Below are positions 28,229-48,540 of a stretch of 64,000 bases of DNA, in pieces. Under the pieces are notes generated by a model, which was given only the letters and a program-made list of their open reading frames with translations, searched no databases and was not told the DNA's origin. Numbering within the stretch: position 1 is the stretch's first letter; the number at the start of each line of letters is the position of its first letter. Made by a program: the position numbers and the translations under genes. Source of the DNA: Verrucomicrobiota bacterium (lineage in GTDB: Bacteria > Verrucomicrobiota > Verrucomicrobiia > Limisphaerales > AAA164-E04); assembly GCA_047947115.1 (NCBI GenBank), contig CP170459.1, forward strand, positions 1,312,001 to 1,376,000, read 5' to 3'.

Positions 28229-28658
28229 TACGTTGCTTAACAAGTGTGCGATCATCGAGCGGTGCCTCCAGCGTATCGAACAAGACTACATAGGCTTTGA
28301 AGATCAAATTGAGTCTGATTTCATGCGTCAAGATGCCATTGTCCTTAATATTCAAAGGGCATGTGAGGCATCCATCGATTTGGCCATGCATGTGGTGCGG
28401 TGCCGAAAACTTGGTTTACCAAGAGAAAGTCGGGGTGCGTTTGAATTACTGAGAACATCAGAACTGATGGACCATTCATTGGCTGAAAAAATGATGAAAA
28501 TGGTCTGATTCAGAAACCTTGCTGTTCACAATTACCAGAGTATCAATCTTGAAATCGTTCATTCGATTATTACCAAGCATCTCGATGACTTCCGCCAGCT
28601 CGTTAAATGGTCTATCCAATCAACTATTCAACAACCTCCAAGTAACTTTGTGACTTAG
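28218..28658 (+). pseudogene. HepT/DUF86 HEPN ribonuclease toxin with in-frame stop
   Basis: QDAIVLNIQRACEASIDLA; TGA at 28506-28508, then in frame FRNLAVHNY (RX4HXY) and an open frame to TAG 28658. Confidence 0.85.
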
Positions 28659-28673: not shown

Positions 28674-29654
28674 ATGAAAAAAGCCCTCATTACAGGAATC
28701 ACAGGTCAAGACGGATCCTACCTTGCGGAACTCTTGCTTGAAAAAGGTTACGAGGTCCACGGAATCCTTCGTAGAACCAGCACGTTCAATCGCCAGCGCA
28801 TTGACCCTATCTATCAGAACGCCGACCTGAATCAGGGTAGATTCCATCTACACTACGGAGATTTGGCGGATTCCCCATCCATTTATAAGCTGATCGAGCA
28901 AATCGCTCCGAACGAAATATACAACCTGGCTGCACAGAGTCATGTCAAAGTCAGCTTCGAGAACCCTGAATACACCGCAGACGTGGTTGCCACGGGGACC
29001 TTAAGACTTCTGGAAGCAAATCGCCAAACTGGAGTCATGGCTCGGTTTTACCAGGCCTCGTCGAGCGAAATGTTCGGTAAAGTCAGAGAAACACCCCAAA
29101 CCGAACTGACACCCTTTCACCCAAGAAGTCCCTATGGCGTCGCCAAGGTGTTTGCACACCAGATCACGGTGAATTACCGAGAATCCTACGACATGCACGC
29201 CAGTTGTGGTATCCTGTTCAATCATGAATCACCCCGTCGAGGTGAAAATTTTGTAACGCGCAAAATAACCCAATCGGTTGCCAAGATTCATAAAGGGCTT
29301 CAAGACAAACTTGTTTTAGGAAACCTGGATGCCAAGCGGGATTGGGGTTATGCCAAAGAATATGTCGAAGCCATGTGGCGCATGTTGCAGCAGGATGAAC
29401 CAGATGATTATGTGATCGCAACGAACGAGACACATTCTGTTCAGGAATTCCTCGAAATAGCTTTCAAACATGTAGGAAAAAACTATCAAGACTACGTGGA
29501 AACATCCTCTGCATACTACCGACCAGCGGAAGTGGATCTCCTGATAGGAGACTACACTAAAGCCAAAACCAAACTAGGCTGGCAGCCAGAAACAACTTTT
29601 GAAGGGTTGGTAAAACTGATGGTCGACTCTGATTTGGAGGCATTAAACGGCTAG
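28674..29654 (+). CDS. gmd: GDP-mannose 4,6-dehydratase
   Basis: [42 protein letters not shown]. Confidence 0.95.
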
Positions 29655-30124
29655 GGTAGCCCGTGACGTCCCTGTCGCGGAGAGAGATTCGGACAAGTAA
29701 TGTATCCGGCCGACTGCGAGATCCCTGATCCGTCATCTTTTATCAACCACCCGTCCCGCAGTTGCGGGTCTAGAGAACACAGAGGACACAGAGAGGAAAG
29801 AGTGGGAGATGAAGGTTTATTTTGCACTGTTCTACCGAACAGCCCAAAATAAACCTTCAGACTGTCAGCCCTGCGGGCAGCAACAGGTAGATCGGATCTT
29901 CTCGCGTTCTTTGGTAGGGATGGGCTGCTGCCCGTCCATGGATGACAGTTGCTTTCATAAACGCTTTAACCAATCAAAGCCGGATAACTTACGATCCCTT
30001 TTAAGTGTACTGCCTTTGAGGTTCCTTTGCCTTTTCATTCGAAAAATCAAAGGAAACTCAGAACTCTGTGCTCCTCAGTGTCCTCTAATGAGGTGCAACC
30101 GAGCGGGTGGTGAACATAACAATA

Positions 30125-30643
30125 ATGGCCCTTCTGGAAGAACCAAAACTTACAACCTCCCCATTAACCAAATCCTGCCAGGAGATGGTCTTAGCGGGTG
30201 GTCGGTTGAGTCAACTGCTTGGATTCCCCAAGTCAATAGGGCAAATATACGGTTTACTCATGTTTACGGATAAACCAATGTCTGCTGAGGACATCGGAAC
30301 AACTTTGTCCGTTAGCAAAGCAACCATCAGTAATAGCATTCGGCAGTTATCCAGTTGGGGAATCATTAGGCAAGTATGGATCCAAGGAGATCGCAAAGAT
30401 CACTATGAAGTGATTGAAGATTTTAGGGCTGTGATCAGGGCGGCAATGTCCGAAGTCATCAAGCCAAGAATCAATTCTTCGGGCCAACGGATTGAGCGCA
30501 TTTCATCATTCCTGGAAGAGGAAAATCAGTCTGGAGAAATCACACCAGACCTTTTTCAACTCCGAAAGCGCCGGCTTAAATCCATGACCAAGCACCATCA
30601 AGCCATTGGCAAGATGATACCGATGCTAGAAAAGCTGTTTTGA
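30125..30643 (+). CDS. GbsR/MarR family transcriptional regulator
   Basis: LGFPKSIGQIYGLL...PMSAEDI...LSVSKATIS..IRQL..WG.I..V...GDRKDHY. Confidence 0.85.
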   Translation: MALLEEPKLTTSPLTKSCQEMVLAGGRLSQLLGFPKSIGQIYGLLMFTDKPMSAEDIGTTLSVSKATISNSIRQLSSWGIIRQVWIQGDRKDHYEVIEDFRAVIRAAMSEVIKPRINSSGQRIERISSFLEEENQSGEITPDLFQLRKRRLKSMTKHHQAIGKMIPMLEKLF

Positions 30644-31237
30644 TCGGAGGTAGATCTTGACGTTTCTGGCGATTAGGTAAAATCCCGCGACTGCGTGGAT
30701 CCCCGGCGCGTAAGGTATTAGATCTGCCACTTTTTTTATTCACCACCTGTTCGGCTGCACCGCACTAGAGGCACAGAGATTCGAGAGTGGAAAGAGAAGG
30801 CTAAAAGGAAGAGAGAGTTGATGTTTTATTTTGTAATGTTCTTTTGAACAGCCCAAAATAAAACATCAAAGCCTCAGCCCTGCGGGCGGCAGGGTAGATT
30901 AGATCGTCCCTGGTGCGCCATGATAGGTAGAGCGTAAAGTGTGTCCCGTCGACTGTGGAGTCACTGTCGCGCGGTCATCAACGCCAATCGTTACCAATAA
31001 CGTTTAAATCTGTAGAATAACCATCAGTAATCGAATCCTTTTTAGTGTGCAATCTTTACACTTTATTCGACGATTTGACTTAAATCCTCAAATAAAGTGA
31101 AAAACCCCTCAAGCTCGATACTTTTAATTTCTCTCTCGAATCTCTGTGTCCTCAATCCCGCGACTGCGGGAGGGTGGTGAAAAAAGCACCGCGCCTCTAG
31201 TCCCGCTTGCGGGACGAACGTGAGATCCTATTACACA

Positions 31238-32209
31238 ATGTCAACATACCTCGTCACCGGTGTTGCCGGATTTATCGCATCCAAAACAGCTGAGTTCCTC
31301 CTTAGTGAGGGGCATACAGTGGTAGGTGTGGATAATATGAATGATTACTACGATGTCCGACTCAAAGAGCATCGTTTGGAAAATCTGCAATCCCAGCCTA
31401 ATTTTATATTTCATCAGCTGGATATCGAATCACAAGCTGACCTTGATGACTTGTTCAAGCAACACATCTTCAACGGCGTCCTCAATCTCGCAGCAAGAGC
31501 GGGGGTACGATACAGCTTGGAAAACCCACACGTCTACATGACGACCAACGCAATGGGCACGCTTAACTTGCTCGAATGCATGCGTCATCATGATGTGGAG
31601 AAAATGGTTTTGGCTTCGACGTCCTCCCTTTACGCGGGGCAGCAGATGCCGTTTACGGAAAAACTTCCAGTAAATACTCCCATTTCTCCTTATGCAGCTT
31701 CTAAAAAGGCAGCAGAGGTGATGTGTTATTCCTATCACAATCTTTTTCAACTCGATATATCAGTTGTCCGGTATTTTACGGTTTTTGGACCCTGTGGCCG
31801 CCCCGATATGTCCATTTTTCGGTTCATTAAATGGATTGCCGAAGAAACGCCAATTGAGTTGTTTGGAGATGGATCGCAATCCAGAGATTTTACCTTTGTA
31901 GACGATATCGCCAAAGGAAGCATTGCAGCACTCAAACCAATAGGATATGAAATTTTTAATTTAGGTGGTGGGAACAATCCCATTTCGCTAAACCAGATTA
32001 TTCAATGGATTGAAGAAAGTTTGGGTAAGAAAGCAATTATTGAAAACCAACCCTTCCATAAAGCGGACATGAAATCAACTTGGGCAGACATATCAAAAGC
32101 TGAGTCAATGTTAGAGTGGAAGCCTGAGATCGATATTAAAGAAGGCGTTCTCAAATGTGTGGAATGGTACCAGCAAAACCATTCCTGGCTCAAAGATATC
32201 AAACTGTAG
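31238..32209 (+). CDS. NAD-dependent epimerase (UDP-glucuronate 4-epimerase-like)
   Basis: TGVAGFIAS, LAARAGVRYS, PYAASKK, RYFTVFGP.GRPDM. Confidence 0.88.
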   Translation: MSTYLVTGVAGFIASKTAEFLLSEGHTVVGVDNMNDYYDVRLKEHRLENLQSQPNFIFHQLDIESQADLDDLFKQHIFNGVLNLAARAGVRYSLENPHVYMTTNAMGTLNLLECMRHHDVEKMVLASTSSLYAGQQMPFTEKLPVNTPISPYAASKKAAEVMCYSYHNLFQLDISVVRYFTVFGPCGRPDMSIFRFIKWIAEETPIELFGDGSQSRDFTFVDDIAKGSIAALKPIGYEIFNLGGGNNPISLNQIIQWIEESLGKKAIIENQPFHKADMKSTWADISKAESMLEWKPEIDIKEGVLKCVEWYQQNHSWLKDIKL

Positions 32210-32604
32210 GTAGCCCAATATCTCAGATTCACATTCGCAGGTAGATCAGAAAAGTGTATCCCGTTGACCGCGGAATCCCTGATCCTCTGTGAAAGGTAGA
32301 GCGTGACGTCCCTGTCGCGCTGGATAGATCTCCCGATAAATCGGGACTGATCCGCAATGCACCGGTAGGGATAGGCTGCTGCCTGTCCGTCGAATGCCAA
32401 GCATATCCAAATTTTCAATAACCGTTCAAATACCAGAAAACATACAACACCTTTTAAGTGTGACACCTTTTGTTTTTCTTTGTAATTACGGCTGGAATTA
32501 CAAAGAAAAACAAAAAACATCCTTTTTAACTCTGCAACCTCCCAACCTCTAGTGACCGCAGCTATGCTGAAAGTCCCGTGGCTGCGGGAGGTGGTGAAGA
32601 AAAA

Positions 32605-33894
32605 ATGCAAAAGACAACTATCGCAATCGTAGGCCTCGGCTATGTAGGTCTTCCACTTGGACTTCAGTTCGCCCGATCCGGTGTGAATGTCATCGGCTTG
32701 GATGTAGATAATTCCAAAGTGGATGCACTCAACCAAGGAAGAAGCTATATCAAGCACATCGCTGCTTCCGACATTCAGGAAGCAGTCAATAAAGGATGCT
32801 TTTCTGCTTCTACTGACTTTTCTAAAGTAACGGAAGTTGAAGCCGTCCTTATATGTGTGCCGACGCCACTGGACCAACATCGTGAACCTGATATTAGTTA
32901 TGTAATCAAGAGCGGAGAAGCCATCGCCCCTTTCTTAAAACCACCAGAAGGGGGAAGGAAGAAACTCATTGTTCTCGAATCGACGACCTATCCAGGAACG
33001 ACAGATACAGACCTTCGAGAAGTGCTTGAGAAAGGATCGGGATTGAAAGCTGGAGAAGATTTTCACCTGGCCTACTCGCCTGAACGAGAAGATCCAGGTC
33101 GCACTGATCATTCGGTAAAAAGCATACCAAAGGTGATGGGAGGATACACCTCCGACTGCCTGGAACGTTGCACGGAACTTTATCTGACTGCCCTTGATAA
33201 AGTGCATCCAGTCAAGTCTTGCCGCATAGCCGAAGCAACGAAATTGACCGAAAACATTTTTCGATCGGTGAACATTGCACTGGTCAACGAACTGAAATTG
33301 GTTTTTCACAAAATGGACATTGATGTGTGGGATGTCGTCGATGCAGCAGCAACCAAACCCTTTGGATACATGCCATTTTATCCAGGACCGGGATTAGGGG
33401 GACACTGCATTCCCATTGATCCATTTTACCTGACATGGAAAGCACGTGAGTACGAACAACACACCCGATTCATCGAATTGGCTGGTGAAATAAACACAGC
33501 CATGCCAGACTATGTGATATCCCGAGTGGCCGATGCTCTGAATGACGAAGGTAAATCCATCAAAGGAAGCCGGATCTTGTTGCTTGGTTTGGCCTACAAA
33601 CCCAATGTGGATGATGATCGTGAAAGCCCCAGTTACCGATTGATTGAAAAACTGGAACACAAAGGAGCCGAAGTTGCATACAACGACCCCCATGTTCCCG
33701 AAATCCGGCCGACCAGAGAATTCCCGCAATACGCAGGTCGAAAGTCGCAAGAAATTTCAGATGACTACGATTTGATCCTCCTGGCAACACACCACAAAGA
33801 ATACAAGGGATTTGATTTCAGCAATTACACGATTCCAATCGTGGACACACGCAATTGCATCACCAAACGACCCGATAAATACTACCAGGCATAG
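32605..33894 (+). CDS. Nucleotide-sugar dehydrogenase (WbpA-like UDP-GlcNAc 6-dehydrogenase)
   Basis: GLGYVGLP, LESTTYPGTT, SPEREDPG, GPGLGGHCIPIDP, DDRESPS. Confidence 0.9.
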   Translation: MQKTTIAIVGLGYVGLPLGLQFARSGVNVIGLDVDNSKVDALNQGRSYIKHIAASDIQEAVNKGCFSASTDFSKVTEVEAVLICVPTPLDQHREPDISYVIKSGEAIAPFLKPPEGGRKKLIVLESTTYPGTTDTDLREVLEKGSGLKAGEDFHLAYSPEREDPGRTDHSVKSIPKVMGGYTSDCLERCTELYLTALDKVHPVKSCRIAEATKLTENIFRSVNIALVNELKLVFHKMDIDVWDVVDAAATKPFGYMPFYPGPGLGGHCIPIDPFYLTWKAREYEQHTRFIELAGEINTAMPDYVISRVADALNDEGKSIKGSRILLLGLAYKPNVDDDRESPSYRLIEKLEHKGAEVAYNDPHVPEIRPTREFPQYAGRKSQEISDDYDLILLATHHKEYKGFDFSNYTIPIVDTRNCITKRPDKYYQA

Positions 33895-34595
33895 GTAGCT
33901 CGTAAAGTTTATCCCGTCGACTGCGGGATCCCTGTCGCGCCAGGTAGATCTCCCGATAAATCGGGACTGGTCCGCCACCATTATTTACCACCCGTTCGGC
34001 TGCGCCTCACTAGAGAACACAGAGGACACGGAGAGAAGAAAGGAAGCAGTGTTATTGTTTTGATCCGTTCATGCGAACAAATCAAAACAATAACACAAAC
34101 CGTCAGCCCCTCGGGCAAGTAAGGTAGTTCGTGACGTCCCCGTCGCGAGAAGTTATCCCATGGGCTGCAGGATTTCTACCTCGTTGCAAGGTAGATCGGA
34201 CCGTCCCTGGTCCGCACAACGTCTACTACATTCTTATTACGAAAACTATAAGGCACACGAATACTTTTAAGTGTGCTACTTTTTGATTTCTTAGGTTTTG
34301 TCCCAAACCTAAGAAATCAAAAAACCTCTGTGGTCCTCTGTGCTCTCAAGTGAGGAATCGAACGGGTGGTGAATAAAACAAAAACTCTGCGCTACCTCAT
34401 ACGAATCTCCCCATCTCAACCCCGCGGCTGCGGGAGGCGGTTAATACATCTGTGAAAATCTGTGACATCTGCGGATAAAAACAAACCAGCAAAAGCCCAA
34501 AAGCAATGGAACACGTTCTGTTCGGCATTTCTGGGGCTCAAGATAAAATTGGGAGCTGCATATACGTTTGAAGAGTAATCATTAATTGATCCAGT

Positions 34596-34913
34596 ATGCA
34601 TAATCTTCACATTCTACCTGTTCCACTGCTGAAGGAGCTAAAGGAAGTGGCACATAATTTCGAGTCATCAGGAATTCAATTAATACTTTTCGGATCTTTC
34701 GCGACTGGAAATGCGCGATCTACATCAGATCTGGATCTGGCCTTTGATAGTCGAGCTACCTCGGGGCAAGAGATCCGACAGCTTTACGGCCGTATCGATG
34801 ATTTACACACCATTCGCTCGGTGGATTTAGTAGACCTGCAAAAAGTCGATCCTGGAGTAGCTGAGGAAATAAAAAATAACGGACGGATACTCTCCGAATG
34901 CCTTGCTGATTGA
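34596..34913 (+). CDS. Minimal nucleotidyltransferase (MNT), orphan
   Basis: LILFGSFATG....SDLDLAF, VDLVDL. Confidence 0.85.
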   Translation: MHNLHILPVPLLKELKEVAHNFESSGIQLILFGSFATGNARSTSDLDLAFDSRATSGQEIRQLYGRIDDLHTIRSVDLVDLQKVDPGVAEEIKNNGRILSECLAD

Positions 34914-35386
34914 TTCACCACCCGTTCGATTGCACCTCACTAGAGAACACAGAGGGCACAGAGAGGGCGGGGAGACGTTGTTTTATTTTGGGCTATTCAA
35001 TTGAACAGCCCAAAATAAAACAGCAAACCATCAGTTCCGCGACCGTGGGACAGGCTGAAAGGTAGATCGGATCATCCCTGATCCGCATAGCGCCCAGAGC
35101 ATTCAACACCCCGCTCGTATCATGAAAACAAAAAATGATTCACACCCTTTTAAGTGTGCTACCTTTTTGATTTCTTTGGTTTTTTCCGAAAACCTAAGAA
35201 ATCAAAAAACTCTGTGGCCCTCTGAAACTAGATTGTCCCGTCGACTTCGGGATGAACTCAAGTGCCAATTACTCACTACAGCGCTGAAAGTCCCGCGGCT
35301 GCGGGAGGTGGTTAATAAAAAATCCGCCTTCCAACGACATTAATAAAGATCTGCGATCATCTGCGAAATCTGCGGTTAAACACATC

Positions 35387-36319
35387 ATGCGTATTCTAGT
35401 AACAGGAGGAGCCGGATTCCTCGGCAGCCACCTCTGCGATCGGCTCATCGAGCAGGGCCACGAAGTCATCTGCCTCGACAACTTTTTCACCGGAGATAAA
35501 CAGAACATCCGACACTTGCTCAGCCACGATCATTTCGAGTTAATCCGCCACGACGTTATTGATCCGTTCAAAGCAGAAGTAGACCAAATCTACAACTTGG
35601 CCTGTCCGGCATCACCGGTTCATTATCAACACAACCCCATTAAAACTATCAAAACATCGGTGATGGGAGCAATAAATGCGTTAGGATTGGCAAAAAGAAC
35701 CGGAGCACGAGTATTGCAAGCCTCTACATCGGAGGTCTACGGCGATCCAGAGGTGCACCCGCAAACCGAGGCATACCGTGGAAACGTCAACCCCATTGGC
35801 CCACGATCTTGTTACGACGAAGGCAAACGAGTCGCTGAAACCTTGTTCTTCGATTACCATCGGCAGAATAAAGTAAACATAAGGGTGATGCGTATCTTCA
35901 ATACCTACGGCCCCAGAATGCATCCGCATGACGGACGAGTTGTATCAAATTTCATTGTGCAGGCATTAAACAATGAGCCCATTACAGTTTATGGAGATGG
36001 ATCACAAACCCGATCCTTTTGTTATATGGATGATTTGCTGGATGGTATGATTCGATTGATGAACCACGATTCGTTAACCGGACCGGTGAACATCGGCAAT
36101 CCGGGCGAATTCACGATTCTGGAACTTGCTCAAAAAGTAATTGAAAAAACAGGCTCAAAATCAGAAATCATCCACAAAGACCTCCCAACCGACGATCCGT
36201 TACAACGTAAACCAGATATAACCTTAGCCAAAAACGAACTCGACTGGGAACCAAAAATCAACCTGGACCAAGGCCTGGACAAAACCATCACCTATTTCAG
36301 GACACTTTTAGATAGGTAG
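35387..36319 (+). CDS. UDP-glucuronic acid decarboxylase (UXS-like)
   Basis: [46 protein letters not shown]. Confidence 0.92.
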
Positions 36320-36856
36320 ATCGGACCGTCCCTGGTCCGCCACCATCTTAATTCACCACCCGTTCGATTCCTCACTAGAGGACACAGAGATCACAGAGAG
36401 AAGAGGTGAGATGATGATTTATTTCAGCCCGCTCTATCGAACAAACTGAAATAAATCATCAAACTGTCAGCCCAGGTAGAACGGATCGTCCCTGATCCGC
36501 TGGTAAGGTAGAGCGTAAAGTTTATCCCGTCGGCTGCGGGATCTCAGTACTGGGGGTAGAGATCCCGACCTGTCGGGACTGCCTGTCCGCAAATTCTGGA
36601 CCGCAATCACAGACGTATTCAACGAATAGAAGTCAAATAAACATACGATCACCTTTTCAGTGCGAATACTTTTGGTTTTCTTTGGAATTGCAGCTAGAAA
36701 TTCCAAAGAAAACCAAAAACCTCCCTTTACTCTCTGTGGTCCTCCCAATCTCTAGTGACCGCAGGACGCTCTCTCTTGAAGGTAAATTGCGCTGAAAGTC
36801 CCGCGACCGCGGGAGGTGGTGAACAAAAAAACTCTGCGTGAGAAAACACCTAAAAT

Positions 36857-37108
36857 ATGATACTCCAGTACATTGAGAAAGCGCTTAGCCTGGCTCATTA
36901 TGAGATCATCGATGACGAAGATCCCTATTATGGTGAAGTACCTGGATTGGATGGAGTATTGGCTAGTGGAAAAACACTTGAAGATTGTCGTTACCAATTA
37001 GCCCAAGTGGTGGAGGATTGGATACTATACAGCATCGCCAACAAATTACCCATTAATTCACTCGAAGGGATTACCGTCAAAGTACCCGAAATGGTGGCAA
37101 ATGACTGA
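36857..37108 (+). CDS. HicB-like antitoxin, orphan
   Basis: YYGEVPGLDGVLASGKTLEDCR..L..VVEDWI. Confidence 0.8.
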   Translation: MILQYIEKALSLAHYEIIDDEDPYYGEVPGLDGVLASGKTLEDCRYQLAQVVEDWILYSIANKLPINSLEGITVKVPEMVAND

Positions 37109-37334
37109 TGGGACGTTTAAATCCGTCGAATAACCATCAGTAAACGAACCCTTTTAAGTGTGCCCCCATTTGCTTTTGTTTGGAGTTTTCGAATGAGAAT
37201 CCCAAACAAAAGCAAAAATCTCCCAGTCTCAAAAAAAACTCTCACGAATCTCCCAATTTCAAGAGACCGCAGGGAACGGGTGGTGAACAAAAACTGTCTC
37301 CAGACCACATCCTAAAGTGTTGCATGTAGTATAG

Positions 37335-37676
37335 ATGGAATTCATCGAAACACCCCATTTCACTAATCTGATTACCCAATACGTTCCTGATGAACACTAC
37401 CGTGCGCTACAACTCGAATTGCAAGCCAACCCTGAAAAGGGGGATCTCATTTCCGGCTCCGGTGGACTTCGGAAGATTAGGGTCGGTTTACCTGGAAGTG
37501 GGAAGCGTGGATCGGCCCGGGTGATTTATCTGTATCTCAAGATTGAAAATCTCATCTACTTTTTGTTGATCTATCGTAAATCCAAATCCGAAAACCTCAC
37601 CCGATCCCAGGTAAGCGAACTACGAGCGCTTGCCGATCAAATCAAGCAGGCCTATCGCCATGAAAGCAGAAAATAA
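37335..37676 (+). CDS. RelE/HigB-like toxin
   Basis: FIETPHF...NPEKGDLISGSGGLRKIRV....GKRGSARVIY...Y.KS..ENL. Confidence 0.85.
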   Translation: MEFIETPHFTNLITQYVPDEHYRALQLELQANPEKGDLISGSGGLRKIRVGLPGSGKRGSARVIYLYLKIENLIYFLLIYRKSKSENLTRSQVSELRALADQIKQAYRHESRK

Positions 37677-37983
37677 AAGAGAATTACCGGAATTCAGTTT
37701 TAAGGACTTAAAACATAGCCTGGGGCAAGCATTGAGAGAGGCGAAAGATAATGGCACGTGCCGAAAGATTAAATTACCGGAACCAATCGTTGAAATCCCG
37801 CCGAAGGAGATAAGAAGAATACGCACTCAGCTTCAAGTAAGCCAATCCGTATTTGCCGCGATGCTGAATGTTCCATTGAAAACGGCCGTTAGCTGGGAAA
37901 CCGGACTACACAAGCCAACCAGAGCGGCATTACGTCTATTAGACATTGCACGGAAGCATCCAGATATTCTTTTTGAAGCTTAA
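37660..37983 (+). CDS. XRE-HTH antitoxin (HigA-like)
   Basis: IRRIRTQLQVSQSVFAAMLNV...VSWETG..KP..AALRLL; overlaps the toxin. Confidence 0.85.
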   Translation: MKAENKRELPEFSFKDLKHSLGQALREAKDNGTCRKIKLPEPIVEIPPKEIRRIRTQLQVSQSVFAAMLNVPLKTAVSWETGLHKPTRAALRLLDIARKHPDILFEA

Positions 37984-38623
37984 TTTACCACCCGCTTGGA
38001 TGTGTAAGGTAGATCGGGCCATCTCTGGTCTGCCACAATAGGTAGCCCACAATGGTAGGGATGAGTTGCTGCTCGTCCGTTCATCCGCCACCAATTATAT
38101 TCACCACCCGTCTTGCTGCGCGCGACTAGAGAACACAGAGGGCACTGAGAGAAAAGAGAAGGAAAGGGAAGGGAGGAGTTGATGTTTTTATTTCGCCCTG
38201 TTCTGTCGAACAAACCGAAATAAAACCACAAACTGTCAGCCCTGCGGGCGGCATGGTAGTCCGCGACGTCCCTGTCGTGAAGGTAGCTCTCCCGATACAT
38301 CGGGACTGGTCCGCCGTGACAGGTAGAGCGTATAGTTTATCCCGTCGACTGCGGGATCCCTGTCGTGCGGTCATTAACGCCAATCGTATCCAACAACGTT
38401 TAAATCCGTAGAATAACCATCAGTAAACGAACCCTTTTAAGTGTGCCATCTTAAGTTTTTCTTTGTTGTTTTCATCCGAAAAGACCAAAGAAAAACTTAA
38501 ACCTCTCAAGACTTAAACATCCTCTCTCGAATCTCTGTGTCCTCAATCCCGCGACTGCGGGAGGGTGGTGTAAATTAAATTCTACGTCCCTGCGACTCCG
38601 CGTGAGCAAAAAACAAGCAAGCC

Positions 38624-39151
38624 ATGGACTTCAAACAAGTCGACGCACTAGCCAGCCAAGAACCCCCACTATCCTATCTGGTTATTGGTGGCTATGCAGT
38701 CGCCGCCCATGGATATTCAAGGTTAACCTTTGACATAGATATTTTAATTCGTCGAGTTGATAAAGAAGTTTGGCATGAACGATGTTTAAACATGGGATTG
38801 CGATGTATTGGCCAGTCAAACTCATTTTCTCAATATGATGGCACAGACAAAAGATTGGACCTGATGTTTGTTGATGATCAATCATTCAATAAAATGAATG
38901 CTGATTGCATCACACAAGACTACGATCAGATCCATACCAAGGTAGTAGGATTGGATCATCTAATTGCATTGAAGTTGCACGCGTTGAAAAACGCACCAGA
39001 GCACCGTGTATCAAAAGATTTCAACGACATAGAAATGTTGGCGAAAAATCACAGATTGCAGTTAAAAAGCGAGCATTACAGAGGATTTTTTCTTAAATAC
39101 GGCACCGACAAGATATACGAAACACTGCTGAGATGCCTTAAATATGATTAA
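38624..39151 (+). CDS. Pol-beta-superfamily nucleotidyltransferase
   Basis: YLVIGGYAVAAHGYSRLTFDIDIL, LIALK....R..KD..DI. Confidence 0.8.
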   Translation: MDFKQVDALASQEPPLSYLVIGGYAVAAHGYSRLTFDIDILIRRVDKEVWHERCLNMGLRCIGQSNSFSQYDGTDKRLDLMFVDDQSFNKMNADCITQDYDQIHTKVVGLDHLIALKLHALKNAPEHRVSKDFNDIEMLAKNHRLQLKSEHYRGFFLKYGTDKIYETLLRCLKYD

Positions 39152-39341
39152 ACCTGTTCAAGAACATGCAGATTTGGAACTACCAACGGATTCACCGCCG
39201 GTTCAAGTTCCGCCTCAAATTTCCCTGGATACAATGCAGCGAAGAATTGAGGAGATTGCGAAGATGTTCCCACAGAACGTTCCCACACCCGAAGAACGAC
39301 TCAGAACCAAAATAGACGTCCTTTTCGAGTTAAAGGAATAG
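39144..39341 (+). CDS. Small hypothetical protein coupled to the nucleotidyltransferase
   Basis: 65-aa ORF overlapping the upstream stop and filling the gap to the next spacer. Confidence 0.55.
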   Translation: MIKPVQEHADLELPTDSPPVQVPPQISLDTMQRRIEEIAKMFPQNVPTPEERLRTKIDVLFELKE

Positions 39342-39918
39342 GTATACCACAATGGTAGGGATTGCGCTGCCGCGCGTCCGTTCAGCCGCCACCAATTTTA
39401 TTCACCACCCGTCTTGCTGCGCGCGACTAGAGAACACAGAGGGCACAGAGGGCACAGAGAGAAAAGAGAAGGATAGGGAAGGGAGGAGTTGATGCTTTTA
39501 TTTTGGCCTGTTCTGTCGAACAAACCGAAATAAAACCACAAACAATCAGTCCCGCGACTGCGGGACGGGCGGCATGGTAGTCCGCGACGTCCCTGTCGCG
39601 TAGGTAGCTCTCCCGATACATCGGGACTGATCCGCTGGTAAGGTAGAACGGAAAAGTGAATCCCGTCGACTGCGGGATCCCTGATCCGCCACAAGAGGTA
39701 GGCCACAATGGTAGGTAGATCGGACCGTCCCTGGTCCGCATTAACCCAGACGCATTCGACAAACGTAATCAGTGAACAAACACCAATAAATCTCCTTTAA
39801 CTCTCTGTGGCCCTCCCCACTTCTAGTGACCGCAGCTATGCTGAAAGTCCCGTGACTGCGGGAGGTGGTTTAAATTAGACTTTGTGGTCCTTGTGACTTT
39901 GTGTGAGCGCTAAAACAA

Positions 39919-40146
39919 ATGAAAAAAACACTGACCGCCATTATTCGAGCAGAAGATGATGTTTATGTAGCGCTTAACCCCGAACTGGACATAGCCAGTC
40001 AAGGTGCTACGACCCAACATGCGCTGAGTAATTTGCAAGAAGCTGTTGATTTGTTCCTGGAAACAGCATCAAAGGAGGAAATAGAGGAGCGATTAAGAGG
40101 TGAATCCTTGGTAACACAATTTGTGGCTGAGTATGCCCCCGCTTAA
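39919..40146 (+). CDS. HicB-like antitoxin, orphan
   Basis: YVALNPELDIASQGAT..HALSNLQEAVDLFLE. Confidence 0.85.
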   Translation: MKKTLTAIIRAEDDVYVALNPELDIASQGATTQHALSNLQEAVDLFLETASKEEIEERLRGESLVTQFVAEYAPA

Positions 40147-40505
40147 GAAGTTTATCCCGCCGACTGCGGGATCCCAGTCGCGGCGGTAGGGATAGGCTGC
40201 TGCCTGTCCGCAAAGGTAGATCGGACCGTCCCTGGTCCGCATTAACCCAGACGCATTCGACAAACGTAATCAGTGAACAAACACCAATAAACATTACGTG
40301 ACCTTTTAAGTGGCGCCCCTTTACGTTTTCTTTGACGATTGAACCACAATCTTCAAAGAAAACGTAAAACCCTTAAAGTTCATTACTTACAACTACTCAC
40401 TCAAACCTCTGTGGCCTTCCCTGTCTCTAGTGACCGCAGCTATGCTGAAAGTCCAGTGACTGCGTGAGGTGGCGAACAAAAAATACTGCGTCCCTGCGAC
40501 TCTGC

Positions 40506-40796
40506 GTGAGAATTACACCAAAAGAACAATCAATCATCCGTGAATCGATCCTGGCATTGGACCCAGAATCCTCGATCTACCTATTTGGGTCACGAGTGGA
40601 TGATCACGCGAAAGGTGGTGACATAGATCTATTGGTGATATCCGACAAACTTGAATTCCGAGATCTCTTAAAACTGAGACGGCTTATACTGGACCAGATA
40701 GGTTGGCAGCAATTGGATCTCATCATCAAAAAGTCCACTGAACTGAGTCAACCATTCGTAGAAGAAGCCATCGAAACAGGGATCTTGCTTACGTGA
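40506..40796 (+). CDS. Minimal nucleotidyltransferase (MNT)
   Basis: GTG start; IYLFGSRVDDHAKGGDIDLLV. Confidence 0.85.
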   Translation: MRITPKEQSIIRESILALDPESSIYLFGSRVDDHAKGGDIDLLVISDKLEFRDLLKLRRLILDQIGWQQLDLIIKKSTELSQPFVEEAIETGILLT

Positions 40797-41154
40797 CGCA
40801 TTAAACTCACCACCCGTTCGATACCTCACTAGAGAACACAGAGGACACAGAGAGAAGAGGAGGTGTTTGAAGGTTTATTTTGTAACATTCTATCGAATAT
40901 CCCAAAATAAACCAACAAACTGTCAGTCCAGGTAGATCGGACCGTCTCTGGTCCGTCATAACCTCAAACGCACTCAACAACGCTGATCACTGACGAAGCC
41001 TTTTAAGTGTGCACCCTTTTTGAGTTCTTTGGCGTTCTGAATTAGAACTACAAAGAACTCAAAAATCTCTGTGATCCTCTAGAGACCGCAGGAAACGGGT
41101 GGTAAAACAAAAAATCTGCGACCATCTGCGTAAATCTGCGGATAAATAACAAAC

Positions 41155-41607
41155 GTGAACGATCGTCCGAAAGCACTACTTCAAGCTAACCTCGATGATC
41201 TACTACGGGCCAAAAAACATTTGGATTACTCGTATAGGCAGATAATTAGCTACGATGCGGAATTCGAGGAGTATAATGAAGAACAATTGGAAACCGTGGA
41301 GGCCTTCACAAGTCGGTTTGCACGTTGTGCGGATTTACTGGTGAACAAGGTTCTGAGATCGTTGGATCGTTATGAACTGAAACCGGGAGGGACATTATTA
41401 GATGTGATCAATAGGGCAGAGAAGCGTGGGATTATCTCAAATGTCGGGGAGTTAAGAGAAATGAAAGACATTAGGAACATCATCGCACATGATTACGCGG
41501 GAATCCAAATGGAACAGGTGTTTGAATACTGCAAACAAAAGAAACCACATTTTGACGAAATTTGCCACAACCTGAAGAATTACGTGGATCGTTTGCAGAT
41601 AATTTAA
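41155..41607 (+). CDS. HEPN-domain protein (MNT partner/toxin)
   Basis: EAFTSRFAR..D, DVINRAEKRG, IRNIIAHDY (RX4HXY). Confidence 0.83.
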   Translation: MNDRPKALLQANLDDLLRAKKHLDYSYRQIISYDAEFEEYNEEQLETVEAFTSRFARCADLLVNKVLRSLDRYELKPGGTLLDVINRAEKRGIISNVGELREMKDIRNIIAHDYAGIQMEQVFEYCKQKKPHFDEICHNLKNYVDRLQII

Positions 41608-42229
41608 ATCGAATCATTAATGAATTAATTCACCACCCGGCTCGCTGCGCGCGACTTGAGAGCACAGAGGACACAGAGAGAGAAGGAGGGGATGATGTTT
41701 TATTTCAGCCCGTTCTATCGAACGAACTGAAATAAATCATCAAACTGTCAGCCCAGGTAGATCGGACCGTCCCTGGTCCGCCGGTAAGGTATTTGGAAAA
41801 ACACTATCCCGTCGACTGCGGGATCCCTGGCGCGTAATGGTAGCTCGGATCGTCCCTGATCCGTAAATCCCCAATCGCTGCCAACAACGCTTACAACATA
41901 GAACAAGCAGCCAAATTACGATCTCCTTTTCAGTGCGAATACTTTTGTTTTTCTTTGTTATGACGGCCAGTAATGCCAAAGAAAAACAAAACCTCTCGAT
42001 ACTCTCTGTGGCCCTCCCAATCTCTAGTGACCGCAGCAATGCTGAAAGTCCCGTGACTGCGGGAGGTGGTAAAACAAAAGTCTGCGACCATCTGCGTAAA
42101 TCTGCGGATAAATAACAAAAGCAAAAACTTCTTATAAACACTCTATGCCCCTCCTTTCCTCTAGTGACCGTAGGGAACGGGTGGTTGAACAACAAAAACT
42201 CTGCATCTCCGCGTGAGAAAAGACGAAAA

Positions 42230-42442
42230 ATGAAAGAAATTATATTTGAGGTATTGGAACAACCTATGGGACAGGGGTTTGTTGCTACAGCAGTTGGGAT
42301 AGGTGTTCACACTGAGGCTGACACACTCGAAGATTTACGTCAAAATGTGCGTGAAGCCGTGGATTGCCATTTTGACGATTCAATGGATGCTCCGAAGCTC
42401 ATCCGTCTCCATTTTGTTCGGGATGAGGTATTGGCCAGATGA
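42230..42442 (+). CDS. HicB-like small antitoxin
   Basis: EIIFEV....GFVATA..IGVHTEADTLEDLRQNVREAVDCHF; ATGA overlap with hicA. Confidence 0.78.
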   Translation: MKEIIFEVLEQPMGQGFVATAVGIGVHTEADTLEDLRQNVREAVDCHFDDSMDAPKLIRLHFVRDEVLAR

Positions 42443-42681
42443 GAACACCACGGGATTTATCTGCGAGTGATTTGGAAAAAGCGTTAAAAGGTCTTGGATA
42501 CGAAAAAACACGAAAGAAGGGATCACACATACGATTAACAACAAATTTAGATGGTGTACATCACGAGACAATTCCGAATCATGATCCGATAAAGATTGGA
42601 ACACTGTCAGCTATTCTGAAGAGCATTGCAAATCACCATCCCATGACGGTAAGTGAATTAATGGAGCAATTAGGCTTATAA
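42439..42681 (+). CDS. HicA family toxin
   Basis: LKGLGYEKTRKKGSHIRL...TIPNHDPIKIGTLSAIL. Confidence 0.87.
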   Translation: MRTPRDLSASDLEKALKGLGYEKTRKKGSHIRLTTNLDGVHHETIPNHDPIKIGTLSAILKSIANHHPMTVSELMEQLGL

Positions 42682-43370
42682 GCATTCGAATTCTACACTG
42701 CCCATTTAATTGAAATAATCCAAGCAGTTGGACAGGCGGCAAGGTAGATCTCCCGATAAATCGGGACTGATCCGCAACGAAAGGTAGATCGTAAAGTTTA
42801 TCCCGTCGACTGCAGGATCCCTGGTCCGCATTAGCTCATATGCATTCGACAAACCCGATCCTTAACGAATACCCAGTAGCATACAATGTGCATACCTTTT
42901 GTTTTTCTTTGTAATTACGACTGGAATTCCAAAGAAAAACAAAAACCTCTCATTACTCTCTGTGCCCTCCTTTTCTCTAGTGACCGCAGGGAACGGGTGG
43001 TGAACAAACCAAAACAATACTACAAACTACCAGCCCTGCGAGCAGCAAGGTAGCCCGCAACGCCTCTGTCGCGCAGGTCATTCGGAAAAGTTTACACTAA
43101 TGGGGTCCAACAACGTTCTGCGCGATTAAACGGAAATAAACACACGCACCCCTTTTAATCAGACATTTTTGACTTTCTTAGATGATTTAACCAAAATCCT
43201 CGAAGAAAGTTAAAACCTCTCTCTCTGTGATCCTCCCAATCTCAAGTGAGGAATCGAACGGGTGGTGCAAATTAACCTTTGTGGACCTTGTGACTTTGTG
43301 TGGTAATAATTTGTTTCCTACGCTTGACTGAGACAGAACTTAGATAGTAATGTGGTCCGTCTACACGGTT

Positions 43371-43447
43371 GGTGGCCGTAGTTCAGTTGGTAGAGCCCCA
43401 GATTGTGGTTCTGGTTGTCGCGGGTTCGAGTCCCGTCGGTCACCCCA
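43371..43447 (+). tRNA. tRNA-His (GUG)
   Basis: G-1:C73 pair, acceptor GTGGCCG/CGGTCAC, anticodon arm CCAGA-TTGTGGT-TCTGG, T loop GGTTCGAG, encoded CCA; TTGACT upstream at 43324. Confidence 0.96.
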
Positions 43448-44034: not shown

Positions 44035-45543
44035 GTTGATCCTTAAAAACTCACGATAGGTGCAATTTTATTGGGTTTTTTGCGGTTTTTGCTTCGCCAT
44101 TTCGACCGGGGAAAAGTATAGTTATTGAAGTTCCTGGTCGATTTGCATCTATGAAATTAAAGCTCAAGCCTTCCCAACAACGATCACTCCTTTTTCCCAC
44201 ACTCTCCGAACAGTGTGATCCGCGGCAACCACTCAAAAAATTGGCCGACGCCATTCCTTGGGATAAGTTCGAAGACGCTTTTTCGGATTACTACAGCGAG
44301 GTAGGGCGGCCCGCCAAACCCATCCGTTTGATGGTGGGCTTGCTGCTATTGAAACAAATTTAAAATTTGAATGATGAGGTCGTCGTTGAAAGATGGATCC
44401 AGAATCCCTACTACCAGTATTTTTGCGGGATGACGGAATTTGAGTGGGACTTTCCCTGCAATCCATCCGACCTGGTTCATTTTCGAAATCGGATCGGTGA
44501 AGAAGGTGTGCATCTGATCTTTGCAATTACCACTGACCTTCATCGCAATCGAATTGAAAAGGAGAGTGAGATCATTGTGGATACCACGGTTCAGGAAAAG
44601 AACATAACTTTTCCAACGGATAGCAAACTACATTCACGGATTATCGGTCGATGCTGGCGCCTGGCCGACAAGTATGGAATCAAACTGCGACGGCGTTATC
44701 GCAAAGAGCTGCGAGAATGTTTGCTGAGCCAAAGATGGAGGTGTCATCCTGGAGAAGCCAAGCTTGCACGCAAGGCGCAAAAACGTATCAAGATAATCGC
44801 GGGTATCCTTCTGCGTGAACTGGATAGAAAACTGCCCAAAAAAAATTCTTAAAGCTCACCTTGAAGATTTCAAACTTTACCTTCGAGTCTTGAATCAACA
44901 GAAGAACGACAAGAATAAGGTCTACTCTTTGCATGAACCGCAGGCCTACTGCATCGCCAAGGGCAAGGAAAACAAGAAGTATGAGTATGGCAGTAAAGCA
45001 TCGGTCGCCGTAACAGCAGATACAGGCATCATTGTCAGTGTTGTTGCTCATCCTGAAAACATATATGATGGCCATACTTTACCGGAAGTCTTCGAATTAG
45101 CGGAAGCAGTCATGGGAGAACGACCGAAGAAGGCCATTGTGGATCGTGGCTATCGAGGCGAAAAACATATTGATGGAACGGACATACTTTCACCCGAGAA
45201 CGGGAAAGCTGAACAAACCAAATCAGAGAAGGCAAAGATGCGACAACGGTTTCGAAAACGAAGCGGAATCGAAGCAATCATAAGCCATCTCAAACATGAT
45301 TTCCGATTATTGAGATGTTACTTGAAAGGCAGTCTGGGAGATACAATGAATTTGTTGCTGGCTGCCTGTGCCTGGAATCTGAAGAAATGGATGGGGGCCG
45401 TTTCTTTTCGTCAAATATACCTAATTTGTAACCAGATTAAGGCACTCATGTCATCCCTCAGGGGACTTTTTTCAAATCTGACACGTTACAAAAGGTTCGT
45501 TGGATTCCGATAGGAATTCTTAATCCCTTTTTTAAGGATCAAC
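44035..45543 (+). mobile_element. IS5-family element with disrupted transposase
   Basis: TIR GTTGATCCTTAAAAA/TTTTTAAGGATCAAC; 6-bp TSD TAGTTA; transposase 44151-45513 split by TAA 44361 and a frameshift in an A run near 44840. Confidence 0.88.
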
Positions 45544-45569
45544 TAGTTAATTGACTCACAAAACAACAA

Positions 45570-46450
45570 GAACGGTTCATTACCTGTAATTAGATTCCCA
45601 AGACGCCGGCTCATCCGTTTTATTACCGACTCAATCAGGTTTTTGCTGAGTGTGGTTTTGATGTCTATGTTGAAGGGTTGTGCGCCATGTTTTGCAAGAA
45701 TTTTGGCAGTTCAGGCATTGCCCCGGAATTTATTTACGAATGATTTTTATTTGATATTCTTAAGATCTTAAAGGTCAGAAAAATATCGCATGGCAATTTT
45801 ATGACAGCCTTTGCTTGCGTGAATTTTTCTATAAGTTCCAAAGAAAGAACTCTTGCGTACAACGATTATTCGTCAACCCTTTTCTGATGATGTTTTTCAC
45901 AAAGTTTCCTTTTGGTGCTCGAACAATTCAAAGAAAAAAGTAATTGAAGGGCAAAACGTTATGAGATTGAGATCAAAAGCCTGGATCCCAACTCAGCCAT
46001 GGGCAGCTTAGCATCGTACACAAGGGCGCGGGTGAAGATCGGAAAAATTCCTGCCTTAACTTGCCAATAAATAAAATACCGAGAATCGAAGGTGTGCAGG
46101 CATTCAAGCGCATCGAAATAGGTAGAAGCATAGATTCTTAGAGAGAAGCTCATATAGGCTATCAAAACGGAATCACTAACGAACAGGCATTCCCCATCAG
46201 GCGTTGAAGAGTTGGAAGTCATAAAGGTATACGGCTGAGTCCAAAACAAAGCAAACTTGTGGAGCGAATATTTGCTAATAGGTTTAGAGTAGGAAAAGGA
46301 CGTCGAACTTGGCTCCTAAGATATAAAAAACCACCAAGATTCACACACTGAAATGCGCAGCATTCAATGTCGGGTTGCTTTTGAGGAAAATCTTTTGATT
46401 CGCGAGGGCAAAAAATTTGGAATCGAGATTCGACACAGCTTTGACATCTG
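45570..46450 (+). pseudogene. Decayed IS1182-like (DUF772) transposase remnant
   Basis: Fragments translate to AHPFYYRLNQVFAECGFDVYVEGLC, IAWQFYDSLCLREF and CAAFNVGLLLRKIF; boundaries approximate. Confidence 0.55.
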
Positions 46451-46504
46451 TTTTATCATGGTTTTGGCGAAATGATGCCTCAGGGAGACTTAAAGTTGAC
46501 TTCA

Positions 46505-46550
46505 ATCGGATTTGAACCATCGGATTTGAACCATCGGATTTGAACCATCG
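46505..46550. repeat. Tandem repeat ATCGGATTTGAACC x3
   Basis: Three exact 14-bp copies plus a partial ATCG. Confidence 0.9.
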
Positions 46551-46661
46551 ATCTGTGATGCATCGGGAAATCCATGCGTAGCGATATTTGAATCACTCGG
46601 ATTTTCACATTTTGCACTAATTAAACGGGGTAGTAAGGATAATTCTTATCTGTTAATCAAA

Positions 46662-47738: not shown

Positions 47739-47751
47739 ACTCCATATATTT

Positions 47752-48540
47752 ATGAAAAAATCGAATTTAATAAGCGTTAGGCAAAGAATTAAAGCTGGAA
47801 AACAAGTCATAGGAACCTGGCTCAATTCTGCAAGTAGTGTGATGGCAGAATTATTGGCTGAATGCGGTTACGATTTTGTTTGCATCGATGCAGAGCATTC
47901 ACCAATCGATTTGACTAATGCGCAAAGACTATTCACATCTATCACATCAGGAAATCCAGACTGTGAAGCATTTGTACGTTTGCCTGGAATAGATTACTCA
48001 TATACGAAACGTTATTTAGACGCCGGAGCGACTGGATTAATAGGCCCACTTGTAAATTCCCCTGAAGACGCCGCATTGCTAGTCAAAACAGCCAAATACC
48101 CACCCTTGGGTGATCGGGGGGTCGGTTTTTGTAGAGCTAATCAATACGGAAAAAATGTAGCAAAAGAATTCCAAAGGGCGAATGATGAAATTCTAGTTGC
48201 CGTCCAAATTGAACATATTGATGGGGCACAAAGAATTAATGAAATCCTTGCTGTTGAGGGAATTGATGCTGTATTCATAGGTCCATATGATCTATCGGCT
48301 TCAATGGGATTGACCGGGCAATTTGAAAATTCGGACTATGTATCCGTTCGTGACAGCATACTTGAAGCCTGCCGGCGACACGATGTCGCCGCCGGGATTC
48401 ACGTCGTACCAACCAATTTAAATGAATTGGAAATGAGGCTCAAGGAGGGCTATAAAATGATCGCTTATAGTTTGGATATTGAAATGGTCCGTAGACTCGG
48501 AAATGAAGGAGTTTCTCGTTTCCAGGAAATCACTCGTTAG
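47752..48540 (+). CDS. HpcH/HpaI class II pyruvate aldolase
   Basis: GYDFVCIDAEHS, KYPPLG.RG, VQIEH, FIGPYDLSASMG. Confidence 0.9.
   Translation: MKKSNLISVRQRIKAGKQVIGTWLNSASSVMAELLAECGYDFVCIDAEHSPIDLTNAQRLFTSITSGNPDCEAFVRLPGIDYSYTKRYLDAGATGLIGPLVNSPEDAALLVKTAKYPPLGDRGVGFCRANQYGKNVAKEFQRANDEILVAVQIEHIDGAQRINEILAVEGIDAVFIGPYDLSASMGLTGQFENSDYVSVRDSILEACRRHDVAAGIHVVPTNLNELEMRLKEGYKMIAYSLDIEMVRRLGNEGVSRFQEITR

Follow-up and report, generated by a model that had tools for sequence, protein, structure and literature searches.

Hairpin A of a Verrucomicrobiota polysaccharide locus lies within a polarised composite repeat whose outer arms match those around GxxExxY genes

Hairpin A forms the inner stem on the 5′ side of a polarised 300-470-bp non-coding repeat, and was never found alone. 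The functional unit is the entire composite element, not hairpin A by itself. Direct observation shows how the unit is built, that its copies all point the same way and occur in a single locus, and that its outer arms match those around GxxExxY genes. Because the unit ends match the repeats flanking a GxxExxY gene, the unit is likely to be a gene-less DNA element of that family. We therefore favour, as the probable explanation, that hairpin A in its composite repeat represents a gene-less member of a GxxExxY nuclease-plus-repeat family, likely working as folded single-stranded DNA. The unit probably acts as an exchange point at which the locus is reshuffled.

Results

Anatomy of the composite unit

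The window analysed is a stretch of 64,000 nucleotides. A preliminary description had listed nine hairpin A copies of about 50 bp in it; all nine are present, and the letters of the four arm pairs quoted there are correct. It had missed a half copy, together with six hairpin A copies just outside the window and the larger unit to which hairpin A belongs. The genome total is 15 copies, all within one polysaccharide locus. The copies in the window are as follows (no strand is assigned to hairpins A and B).

29810..29859, hairpin A1, inside unit 29743-30114, with gmd on one side and a GbsR/MarR-like gene on the other
30818..30869, hairpin A2, inside unit 30739-31181
34049..34096, hairpin A3, inside unit 33985-34373
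34977..35024, hairpin A4, inside unit 34914-35318
36412..36461, hairpin A5, inside unit 36352-36823
38179..38232, hairpin A6, with a 1-nt register shift, inside unit 38100-38572
39489..39542, hairpin A7, inside unit 39401-39872, which is without hairpin B
40866..40918, hairpin A8, inside unit 40806-41106
41693..41742, hairpin A9, inside unit 41629-42073
43002..43040, + strand, half hairpin A, the right half joined to the right arm at a common GAAC; a deletion product

Searching positions 29600-43400 for palindromes with 14-bp arms, a 20-nt spacer and at most two mismatches yielded 14 (eight of type A and six of type B), compared with a mean of 0.05 and a maximum of 1 per shuffle in 200 dinucleotide shuffles. 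The core of hairpin A had been described as an invariant 20-nt sequence. Its length holds, at 20 nt in 24 of 25 copies, but its sequence varies, and the proposed GTTC-N4-GAAC inner stem is exact in six of the nine window copies and 11 of 25 overall. The core is the stem carried on, with about eight further pairs and a 4-nt loop, and the middle is rich in mismatches.

Each unit runs in the order left arm, hairpin A, GTAG-type REPs, hairpin B, right arm. The other components are:

29743..29800, + strand, left outer arm (example), with TCACCACCCG, a small hairpin, CTAGAG and 9-nt CACAGAG repeats
30064..30114, + strand, right outer arm (example), the left arm copied in inverse
30015..30062, hairpin B1; B copies are mostly preceded by TTTTAAGTGTG
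About 31055-31103, 32468-32515, 34280-34323, 35164-35208, 36670-36718 and 37169-37216, the first hairpin B copies after B1
About 38451-38500, 40320-40368, 41017-41065, 41943-41991, 42897-42944 and 43167-43215, later hairpin B copies
29655..43080, + strand, GGTAG-tagged REP-like units, with 36 GGTAG against 5 CTACC in the intergenic gaps

The left outer arm lies 5′ of all nine window copies of hairpin A; 14 right-arm ends were listed from 30114 to 43004, with one further near 43269. Several of the GGTAG REP-like types are dispersed elsewhere in the genome, three of them across the genome in both orientations; a reading of GGTAG as an ops-like antitermination motif was considered and rejected. 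A whole unit folds with a z of -8, as DNA or as RNA. The flanks of nine units are T-rich on the left and A-rich on the right with no consistent direct repeat, and the target-site duplication characteristic of DDE-type MITEs was not found for the units. The deletions seen were imprecise and ran through short common words; they left stubs of HicA (two) and of GxxExxY (one) and produced the fusion at 43002.

The composite units occupy gaps between genes of a sugar-coat (polysaccharide) locus. Every unit in the window lies between cistrons and points in the direction of transcription, with one gene or pair between successive units. The sugar-nucleotide genes and those grouped with them (28674..36319) are followed by toxin-antitoxin-type genes and those grouped with them (36857..42681):

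28674-29654, + strand, gmd, sugar-nucleotide gene
30125-30643, + strand, GbsR/MarR-like gene, separating units 1 and 2
31238-32209, + strand, epimerase, sugar-nucleotide gene
32605-33894, + strand, UDP-sugar dehydrogenase, sugar-nucleotide gene
34596-34913, + strand, nucleotidyltransferase, grouped with the sugar-nucleotide genes
35387-36319, + strand, epimerase/decarboxylase, sugar-nucleotide gene
36857-37108, + strand, HicB-like, toxin-antitoxin type
37335-37983, + strand, RelE/HigA-like, toxin-antitoxin type
38624-39151, + strand, nucleotidyltransferase (these coordinates) plus a small ORF, grouped with the toxin-antitoxin-type genes
39919-40146, + strand, HicB-like, toxin-antitoxin type
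40464-40796, + strand, nucleotidyltransferase, grouped with the toxin-antitoxin-type genes
41155-41607, + strand, HepT-like, toxin-antitoxin type
42230-42681, + strand, HicB-like plus HicA, toxin-antitoxin type

Covariation of the hairpin A arms

Covariation was measured on 25 hairpin A copies, 15 from this genome and 10 from relatives. The compensatory substitutions noted earlier are borne out: 18 of 23 pairs have changed on both sides, a level reached in 0 of 500 shuffles. In the alignment 88.5% of 575 cells are paired (34-49% in slid controls), and a tree-independent count over the 14 outer stem columns gave 21 additional types of Watson-Crick pair, as against 16 types of mismatch. The 350 outer stem cells comprise 326 Watson-Crick pairs, seven G.T and three A.C. 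The proposed fold of fixed geometry is supported.

The same data do not suffice for the further claim of selection on that fold. Template copying from arm to arm yields covariation without selection, according to PMC8794818. One copy, from the relative G004, has a copied version of its 3′ flank on the 5′ side, in inverted orientation. This fold-back flank and the near-pure Watson-Crick stems fit arm-to-arm DNA copying, and covariation alone is therefore no proof of selection. The caution applies to palindromes at large, in which strong covariation can stem from arm copying rather than from a selected RNA fold. Stem changes had a transition:transversion ratio of 14:16 by type and 57:43 by cell, a weak test that does not separate DNA from RNA; for RNA stems, PMC8794818 gives 61% of changes as transition-type. 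Middle-stem mismatches on the sense strand were 26 A.C and 3 G.T, and consequently 19 of 25 copies fold better as the antisense strand with RNA parameters; with DNA parameters the bottom strand folds better in 21 of 25, counts that are weaker than they appear since the copies are related. Hairpin A may plausibly be a recombination or protein-binding site.

GxxExxY genes carry the same arms

The genome contains a single GxxExxY gene (3797712-3798092), outside the window and 2.4 Mb away, flanked by arms of the same design as the outer arms of the unit. Terminal inverted arms of 9-nt CACAGAG-type words, which define the GxxExxY arm family, are found on the units. GxxExxY genes (TIGR04256) also lie directly inside unit arrays in two relatives (L101 and G002 C3), with a contig-cut fragment in L103. 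After one unit in G002 come the opening codons of a GxxExxY gene that has otherwise been deleted; in L101 the gene is intact behind a unit that is 96% identical. An inverted repeat of at least 14 bp between upstream and downstream flanks was found for 25 of 34 GxxExxY genes and for 0 of 34 shifted controls. PF13366 matches were present in all four genomes of the genus with true hairpin A, as against one of four without, and GxxExxY genes occur in 95 of 121 genomes of the order.

The predicted GxxExxY fold (pLDDT 95.5) is PD-(D/E)XK, with invariant E28, D68, K80, Q92 and Y96, and its top Foldseek match was Cas4 SSO0001 (E 1e-3). The best VIA Z (VIA-align) is 8.5, little higher than is commonly seen, and so does not point to a closer subfamily. 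The function of GxxExxY is entered as unknown in PMC3424549. Beyond the genus, neither hairpin A nor hairpin B turned up next to GxxExxY genes, and the enzyme may therefore have no use for these hairpins; other candidates in the genome that could act instead are five Y1/RAYT-like and four GIY-YIG matches. The inner hairpins A and B are new here within the GxxExxY arm family. Our search of the openly accessible literature found no published description of the composite element or of a GxxExxY-plus-repeat family.

Distribution and variation in relatives

The unit family was found in this Verrucomicrobiota genus only, model R1 giving two real matches in 150 genomes of the order. Its matches in G001 and near 3336525 of the present genome were judged by eye to be another kind of hairpin, located upstream of an ORF resembling LexA, and a match in G147 (E 0.009) has no arm context; all three were left out of the counts. 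Hairpin A was not found in viral contigs when searched by one exact pattern.

Two orthologous units differ by 7-8%, compared with 52% at neighbouring four-fold sites. Decaying debris does not predict such conservation, which counts against the favoured reading of the units. Other comparisons of units between relatives showed wholesale replacement. Relative to L099, a divergent block around the regulator gene runs from hairpin B1 to the next left arm. Gene order varies among G000, G002 and G007, that of G002 being less secure because the assembly has a split gene and sequence common to two contigs. Close strains mostly keep gene order and have exchanged unit halves, the HepT gene lying behind a B11-like half in three of four runs. 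The evidence from read runs consists of assembled contigs, in which most joints are explicable by paralogous copies. No precise excision, empty site, circle or cleavage was seen in the genome comparisons or assembled contigs. An empty-site test yielded no usable comparison: the dehydrogenase was seen within the genus in G002 alone, its homologues in other genera having different neighbours, and gmd was found within the genus in G002 and G003 only (57% identical).

Discussion

The probable reading of the units as gene-less members of the GxxExxY family suggests the following pathway. The unit would fold into a long closing stem bearing hairpins A and B and the REP hairpins, with the GxxExxY nuclease cutting the fold itself or close by. 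Fold-back or template-switch repair could then keep the arms complementary, and repair off a paralogous unit could exchange halves of units, with intervening genes being moved or lost. The outcome would be a BIME/REPIN-like mosaic, a hotspot at which sugar-coat and toxin-antitoxin genes are shuffled. If units are cut and repaired, this would explain why the polysaccharide locus is peppered with shuffled toxin-antitoxin genes. A bolder version, in which the units are integrase-free cassette sites whose arm/A/B fold is cut by a Cas4-like GxxExxY protein, with repair reshuffling the genes as in a surface-diversifying analogue of the integron, has in our view a small chance of being correct. With 25 naturally varied, covarying hairpins available, a strand preference predicted and a cognate gene encoded by the genome itself, the locus makes GxxExxY family activity directly testable.

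The units might instead act in polycistronic mRNA, where A, B and the closing stem would be RNase III-type double-stranded RNA processing or stability elements tuning operon expression. RNase III needs stems about 23 bp long, and the stems here are of that length. The intercistronic, co-oriented position of the window units, the z of -8 for their sense RNA and the 92-93% conservation of two orthologous units (48% at four-fold sites) are consistent with this, and an RNA-library run gave contigs over the units, although DNA carry-over is possible. G.U pairs are nevertheless scarce (7 of 350 outer cells), most of the copies, which are related, fold better as the antisense strand, and unit polarity is unchanged beside opposite-strand genes. 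The Rfam search that had been proposed gave a tRNA alone at gathering score across the window, its sub-threshold matches being generic hairpins, and no family matched the units. We regard this explanation as unlikely, though far from negligible. Decidedly less probable is a dedicated recombination role, in which the units would be the single-stranded sites of a cassette system that has no integrase, one gene and one unit being precisely cut out and reinserted. The single gene or pair per interval, the polarity of the units and the seemingly better folding of the bottom strand recall attC, the cargo is rich in toxin-antitoxin genes whose order varies between species, and the block divergent from L099 is bounded by hairpin B1 and the next left arm. 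Yet the deletions observed are imprecise, no recombinase gene lies near the locus, and close strains retain most of their gene order while exchanging unit halves.

It is very improbable that a dimeric host protein, for instance the GbsR/MarR-like regulator, binds hairpin A as double-stranded DNA, with covariation as a by-product of palindrome repair. The TTTATTT/AAATAAA core is nearly invariant with fixed spacing and the regulator gene sits between units 1 and 2, but G007 (94% complete) has four A copies and no match to the regulator, paired changes are tolerated even in the core, and hairpin A is always embedded in the larger unit. Largely refuted, and barely tenable, is that the hairpins are attC sites without a nearby integrase, or the plain intrinsic terminators that had been named as an alternative from the outset. 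The genome does encode an integron integrase (TIGR02249, 435 bits), some 600 kb off. The attC core consensus is RYYYAAC...GTTRRRY, and no such pair was found in 27-44 kb; a relaxed scan gave 14 pairs, one of them touching a hairpin A copy (A1), and a profile of the genome's own attC-like sites gave eight strong matches, none in the locus. The terminator scan gave 20 matches against 14.9 +/- 3.9 in shuffled sequence. One copy, A3 on the minus strand, passed it; on the coding strand none of the copies resembles a terminator, as their stems are AT-rich with no U tract. A promoter scan was at about chance level.

Comparison with known systems

Integron attC arrays and CALINs likewise have one gene or pair between polarised structured sites, keep structure more than sequence and carry toxin-antitoxin cargo; they fold better on the bottom strand, as the present units may also do (bioRxiv 10.1101/2022.09.11.507474). 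Unlike them, the present units have no attC core motifs, own-genome attC-type match or adjacent integrase, are several times longer, also separate core operon genes and show imprecise deletions. A search for IS91 transposase was uninformative, with no match here and none in control genomes.

REP/BIME/REPIN elements with TnpA-REP (RAYT) are also intergenic palindromic mosaics, and in both cases gene-less doublets look like the sequences on either side of a small cognate enzyme gene (PMC8266576, PMC3733652). GTAG-tagged hairpins of the REP/BIME kind occur inside each unit; the inner GGTAG units qualify as such and hairpin A does not. The differences are that the outer arms tie to a PD-(D/E)XK protein rather than an HUH transposase, that the REP-like parts are all head-to-tail rather than inversely paired, that the composite unit is restricted to one locus, and that nothing in the parts of PMC8266576 and PMC3733652 available corresponds to the two AT-rich inner hairpins of 23 bp. 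By eye, none of the unit REP types was seen in the flanks of the five Y1 matches.

Ssn nucleases with NTS/SRM repeats offer a small single-domain nuclease gene between its own oriented hairpin repeats, which cluster around surface-related genes, and the model is strand-specific cutting of single-stranded DNA (PMC11893778). Ssn is a GIY-YIG enzyme with a 20-50-nt repeat (PMC11893778), in contrast to the 300-470-nt multi-hairpin unit here, and GxxExxY is known here from sequence and predicted fold. The NTS consensus had 0 matches here at three mismatches, and hairpins A and B were not present in the flanks of three small GIY-YIG genes.

Closest is the GxxExxY arm family itself (TIGR04256/PF13366), with the same 9-nt CACAGAG-type inverted arms as the units. 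To this the gene-less form adds two long covarying hairpins, nested REPs and at least 15 copies in one locus. If units are cut and repaired, GxxExxY would be a third nuclease class, after HUH and GIY-YIG, among enzyme-plus-hairpin-repeat systems.

Hairpin A and the composite unit

All nine copies of hairpin A, a ~50-bp palindrome placed between 29810 and 41742 by the preliminary description, were present at the positions claimed. Palindromes of this geometry numbered 14, against a shuffled mean of 0.05. Six further copies just beyond the window and ten from relatives gave a covariation set of 25 distinct copies, in which 88.5% of stem cells are paired. Both sides had changed in 18 of the 23 pairs, and 0 of 500 shuffles was as high. 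The shuffle ignores kinship, and pair types were therefore counted as well, each requiring at least one event on whatever tree; the 14 outer columns held 21 extra Watson-Crick pair types against 16 mismatch types. The compensatory changes noticed earlier are thus borne out. The supposedly invariant 20-nt core keeps its length in 24 of 25 copies while its sequence varies, and the GTTC-N4-GAAC inner stem is exact in six of the nine window copies.

In 9/9 window copies hairpin A comes after a conserved left arm and a linker rich in purines. On its 3′ side lie, in order, GGTAG-tagged REP-like hairpins, usually the word TTTTAAGTGTG, hairpin B (~48 bp, 13 copies in the window) and the left arm repeated in inverted orientation, the whole forming a composite unit of 300–470 bp. 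This is predicted to fold with a closing stem and hairpins A and B as branches (one unit gave a z of −8, whether treated as DNA or as RNA). Modules are also mixed in the window, hairpin B occurring without A and A without B. The window features referred to here are:

28448–28508, premature stop in the HepT-like member of the first nucleotidyltransferase pair (96 aa, against 138 aa in the orthologue on metagenome contig L099)
29743–30114, unit 1
30739–31181, unit 2
37108–37128, HicA toxin gene, + strand, reduced to a 5′ stub entering unit sequence
40133–40153, second such HicA stub, + strand
42994–43040, right arm joined to the right half of hairpin A at a common GAAC
43372–43444, tRNA
44100–63900 (continuing in locus L001), remaining polysaccharide locus, full of insertion sequences that belong to several DDE families and are in many cases broken; they surround low-GC glycosyltransferase genes

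The fusion at GAAC implies deletion of the intervening sequence. Orphan HicB-like antitoxins remain beside both HicA stubs, and the relative G002 carries the full genes. A CCCGCGACTGCGGG mini-hairpin decorates many right arms; near 3011018 in this genome it is inserted in a tRNA-like fragment next to a GIY-YIG gene. Elsewhere (2544480–2545150) three tandem ~230-bp units each open with the same GGTAG REP and contain an inverted CTACC partner.

The source genome is a single contig of 6.08 Mb (window, 1312001–1376000), and DUF1553/DUF1501-type proteins are among the window's gene products. The hairpin locus is a surface-polysaccharide locus. It holds gmd, the gene of a GbsR/MarR-like regulator, two genes of the epimerase family and one for a UDP-sugar dehydrogenase; scattered between these are nucleotidyltransferase, HepT, HicAB and RelE/HigA-type genes, and all lie on the + strand.

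Association with GxxExxY genes

The genome's sole PF13366 gene, a small nuclease-fold gene of the GxxExxY family (TIGR04256; 3797712–3798092), is bracketed by the same arm design as the units, 9-nt CACAGAG-type inverted repeats. Among relatives, at locus L101 a GxxExxY gene lies inside the array between two full units, on contig 3 of G002 one lies upstream of a left arm and hairpin A, and at L103 one is a contig-cut fragment. Another G002 unit is followed by the first GxxExxY codons and then a deletion; it differs at 14 of 381 positions from the L101 unit behind which the gene is intact. Across the order, an inverted repeat of at least 14 bp flanks 25 of 34 GxxExxY genes (35 intact genes out of 36 loci, one near-duplicate removed; three broken-gene loci excluded) against 0 of 34 controls. 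In the relative G001 the orthologous gene occupies the same locus as in this genome with different arm words, and left and right arms are still complementary within each genome across about 400 bp.

The protein is predicted to adopt a minimal PD-(D/E)XK fold, in which acidic, lysine and QxxxY residues are invariant. Cas4 SSO0001 and phage exonucleases came nearest to the model in Foldseek, and no solved structure was a close relative. This is a modelled likeness of structure, from which activity does not follow; part of one published account lists GxxExxY as of unknown function (PMC3424549).

Distribution and change between relatives

Profiles of both unit halves match genome positions 1.341–1.399 Mb only. 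Several inner REP types are dispersed genome-wide (2 to 36 copies outside the hairpin locus) and one is locus-only. With a hairpin A covariance model, true copies turned up in four of eight genus genomes and, across the order, in two of 150, both of this genus; the exact hairpin pattern had three matches among 185,579 species genomes, all titled Verrucomicrobia. Short-read contigs from five public runs span the same units, which are therefore not an assembly artefact. In another family, genome G037 (L020, 7700–14150) carries mosaics of GxxExxY-type arms and other REP-like units with no hairpin A or B; composite mosaics are thus a wider pattern.

On L099, where gene order is identical to the window, four-fold sites differ at 69/134 (gmd) and 33/63 (regulator), and units 1 and 2 at only 28/406 and 34/440 positions, counts that leave out two replaced parts, the right arm of unit 1 and a REP before unit 2. 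Identity between paralogous hairpin A regions is mostly 65–84%. The L099 pattern may reflect strong constraint, recent unit exchange, or replacement of the genes between units. At locus L102 a unit interior is replaced between near-identical flanks, and positional orthologues in G002 differ by 40–50% (four-fold sites there, 62–69%). Conservation in the one case against replacement in the others thus indicates change in jumps. Close strains have swapped unit halves with gene order mostly kept; between species, cargo genes and one tRNA stand in a different order, a comparison to be read with a split gene in G002 and a stretch common to two contigs. That tRNA lies 13.7 kb downstream of gmd here and directly after gmd in G002, where it precedes a GIY-YIG-like ORF (judged by eye).

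Folded strand and alternative explanations

Outer stem cells of hairpin A comprise 326 Watson-Crick, 7 G·T, 3 A·C and 14 other pairs, and the middle four pairs 58, 3, 26 and 13, respectively. Given the excess of A·C over G·T in these middle pairs, the bottom strand is the better folder in 19 to 21 of the 25 copies, a count inflated by shared ancestry. In genome G004 (L019, 4500–4620) an inverted copy of the 3′ flank of hairpin A stands on its 5′ side, giving a longer palindrome that looks like a fold-back copying footprint. Positional orthologues of hairpin A2 show a paired T>G/A>C transversion, both sides having changed. These two cases and the stem composition are consistent, at sequence level, with template switching, which can generate and keep perfect stems according to part of one account (PMC8794818). 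The transition share (14/30 types, 57/100 cells) does not discriminate.

We lean towards the view that the unit is a gene-less element of the GxxExxY family, acting as folded single-stranded DNA. A GxxExxY-family nuclease would presumably cut at the folded unit, arm copying would maintain its symmetry, and repair or recombination would use it as a swap point; the role of hairpin A itself within the unit we infer. That the units are instead mRNA-processing elements seems unlikely. A precise cassette system lacking an integrase is still harder to credit. The flanks, contigs and relatives compared yielded neither a target-site duplication nor a circle nor a clean empty site.

We consider it very doubtful that hairpin A is a duplex protein site. 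The local regulator is not required by the hairpins, G007 having no match to it. Least probable of all is that the hairpins are attC sites or terminators. The genome does have a genuine integron integrase at 741 kb with its own attC-like sites (739000–742223), and a profile of these had no match in the hairpin locus; a terminator scan ruled out hairpin A as a terminator, so that the plain terminators allowed for in the preliminary description were not borne out. No Rfam family matched the hairpins. The attC-like cores read CCTACC/GGTAGG rather than the usual AAC/GTT, and similar sites occur at 4321–4323 kb and 5848 kb.

Comparison with known systems

In the literature searched, with supplements and subscription journals outside its scope, we found no published description of GxxExxY repeats. 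As far as parts of the published accounts describe them, REPIN/BIME elements with RAYT (PMC8266576, PMC3733652) and Ssn with NTS repeats (PMC11893778) work in a like manner, but the unit is a member of neither system. What the window adds is two long covarying inner hairpins, a locus-confined expansion and the conservation pattern.
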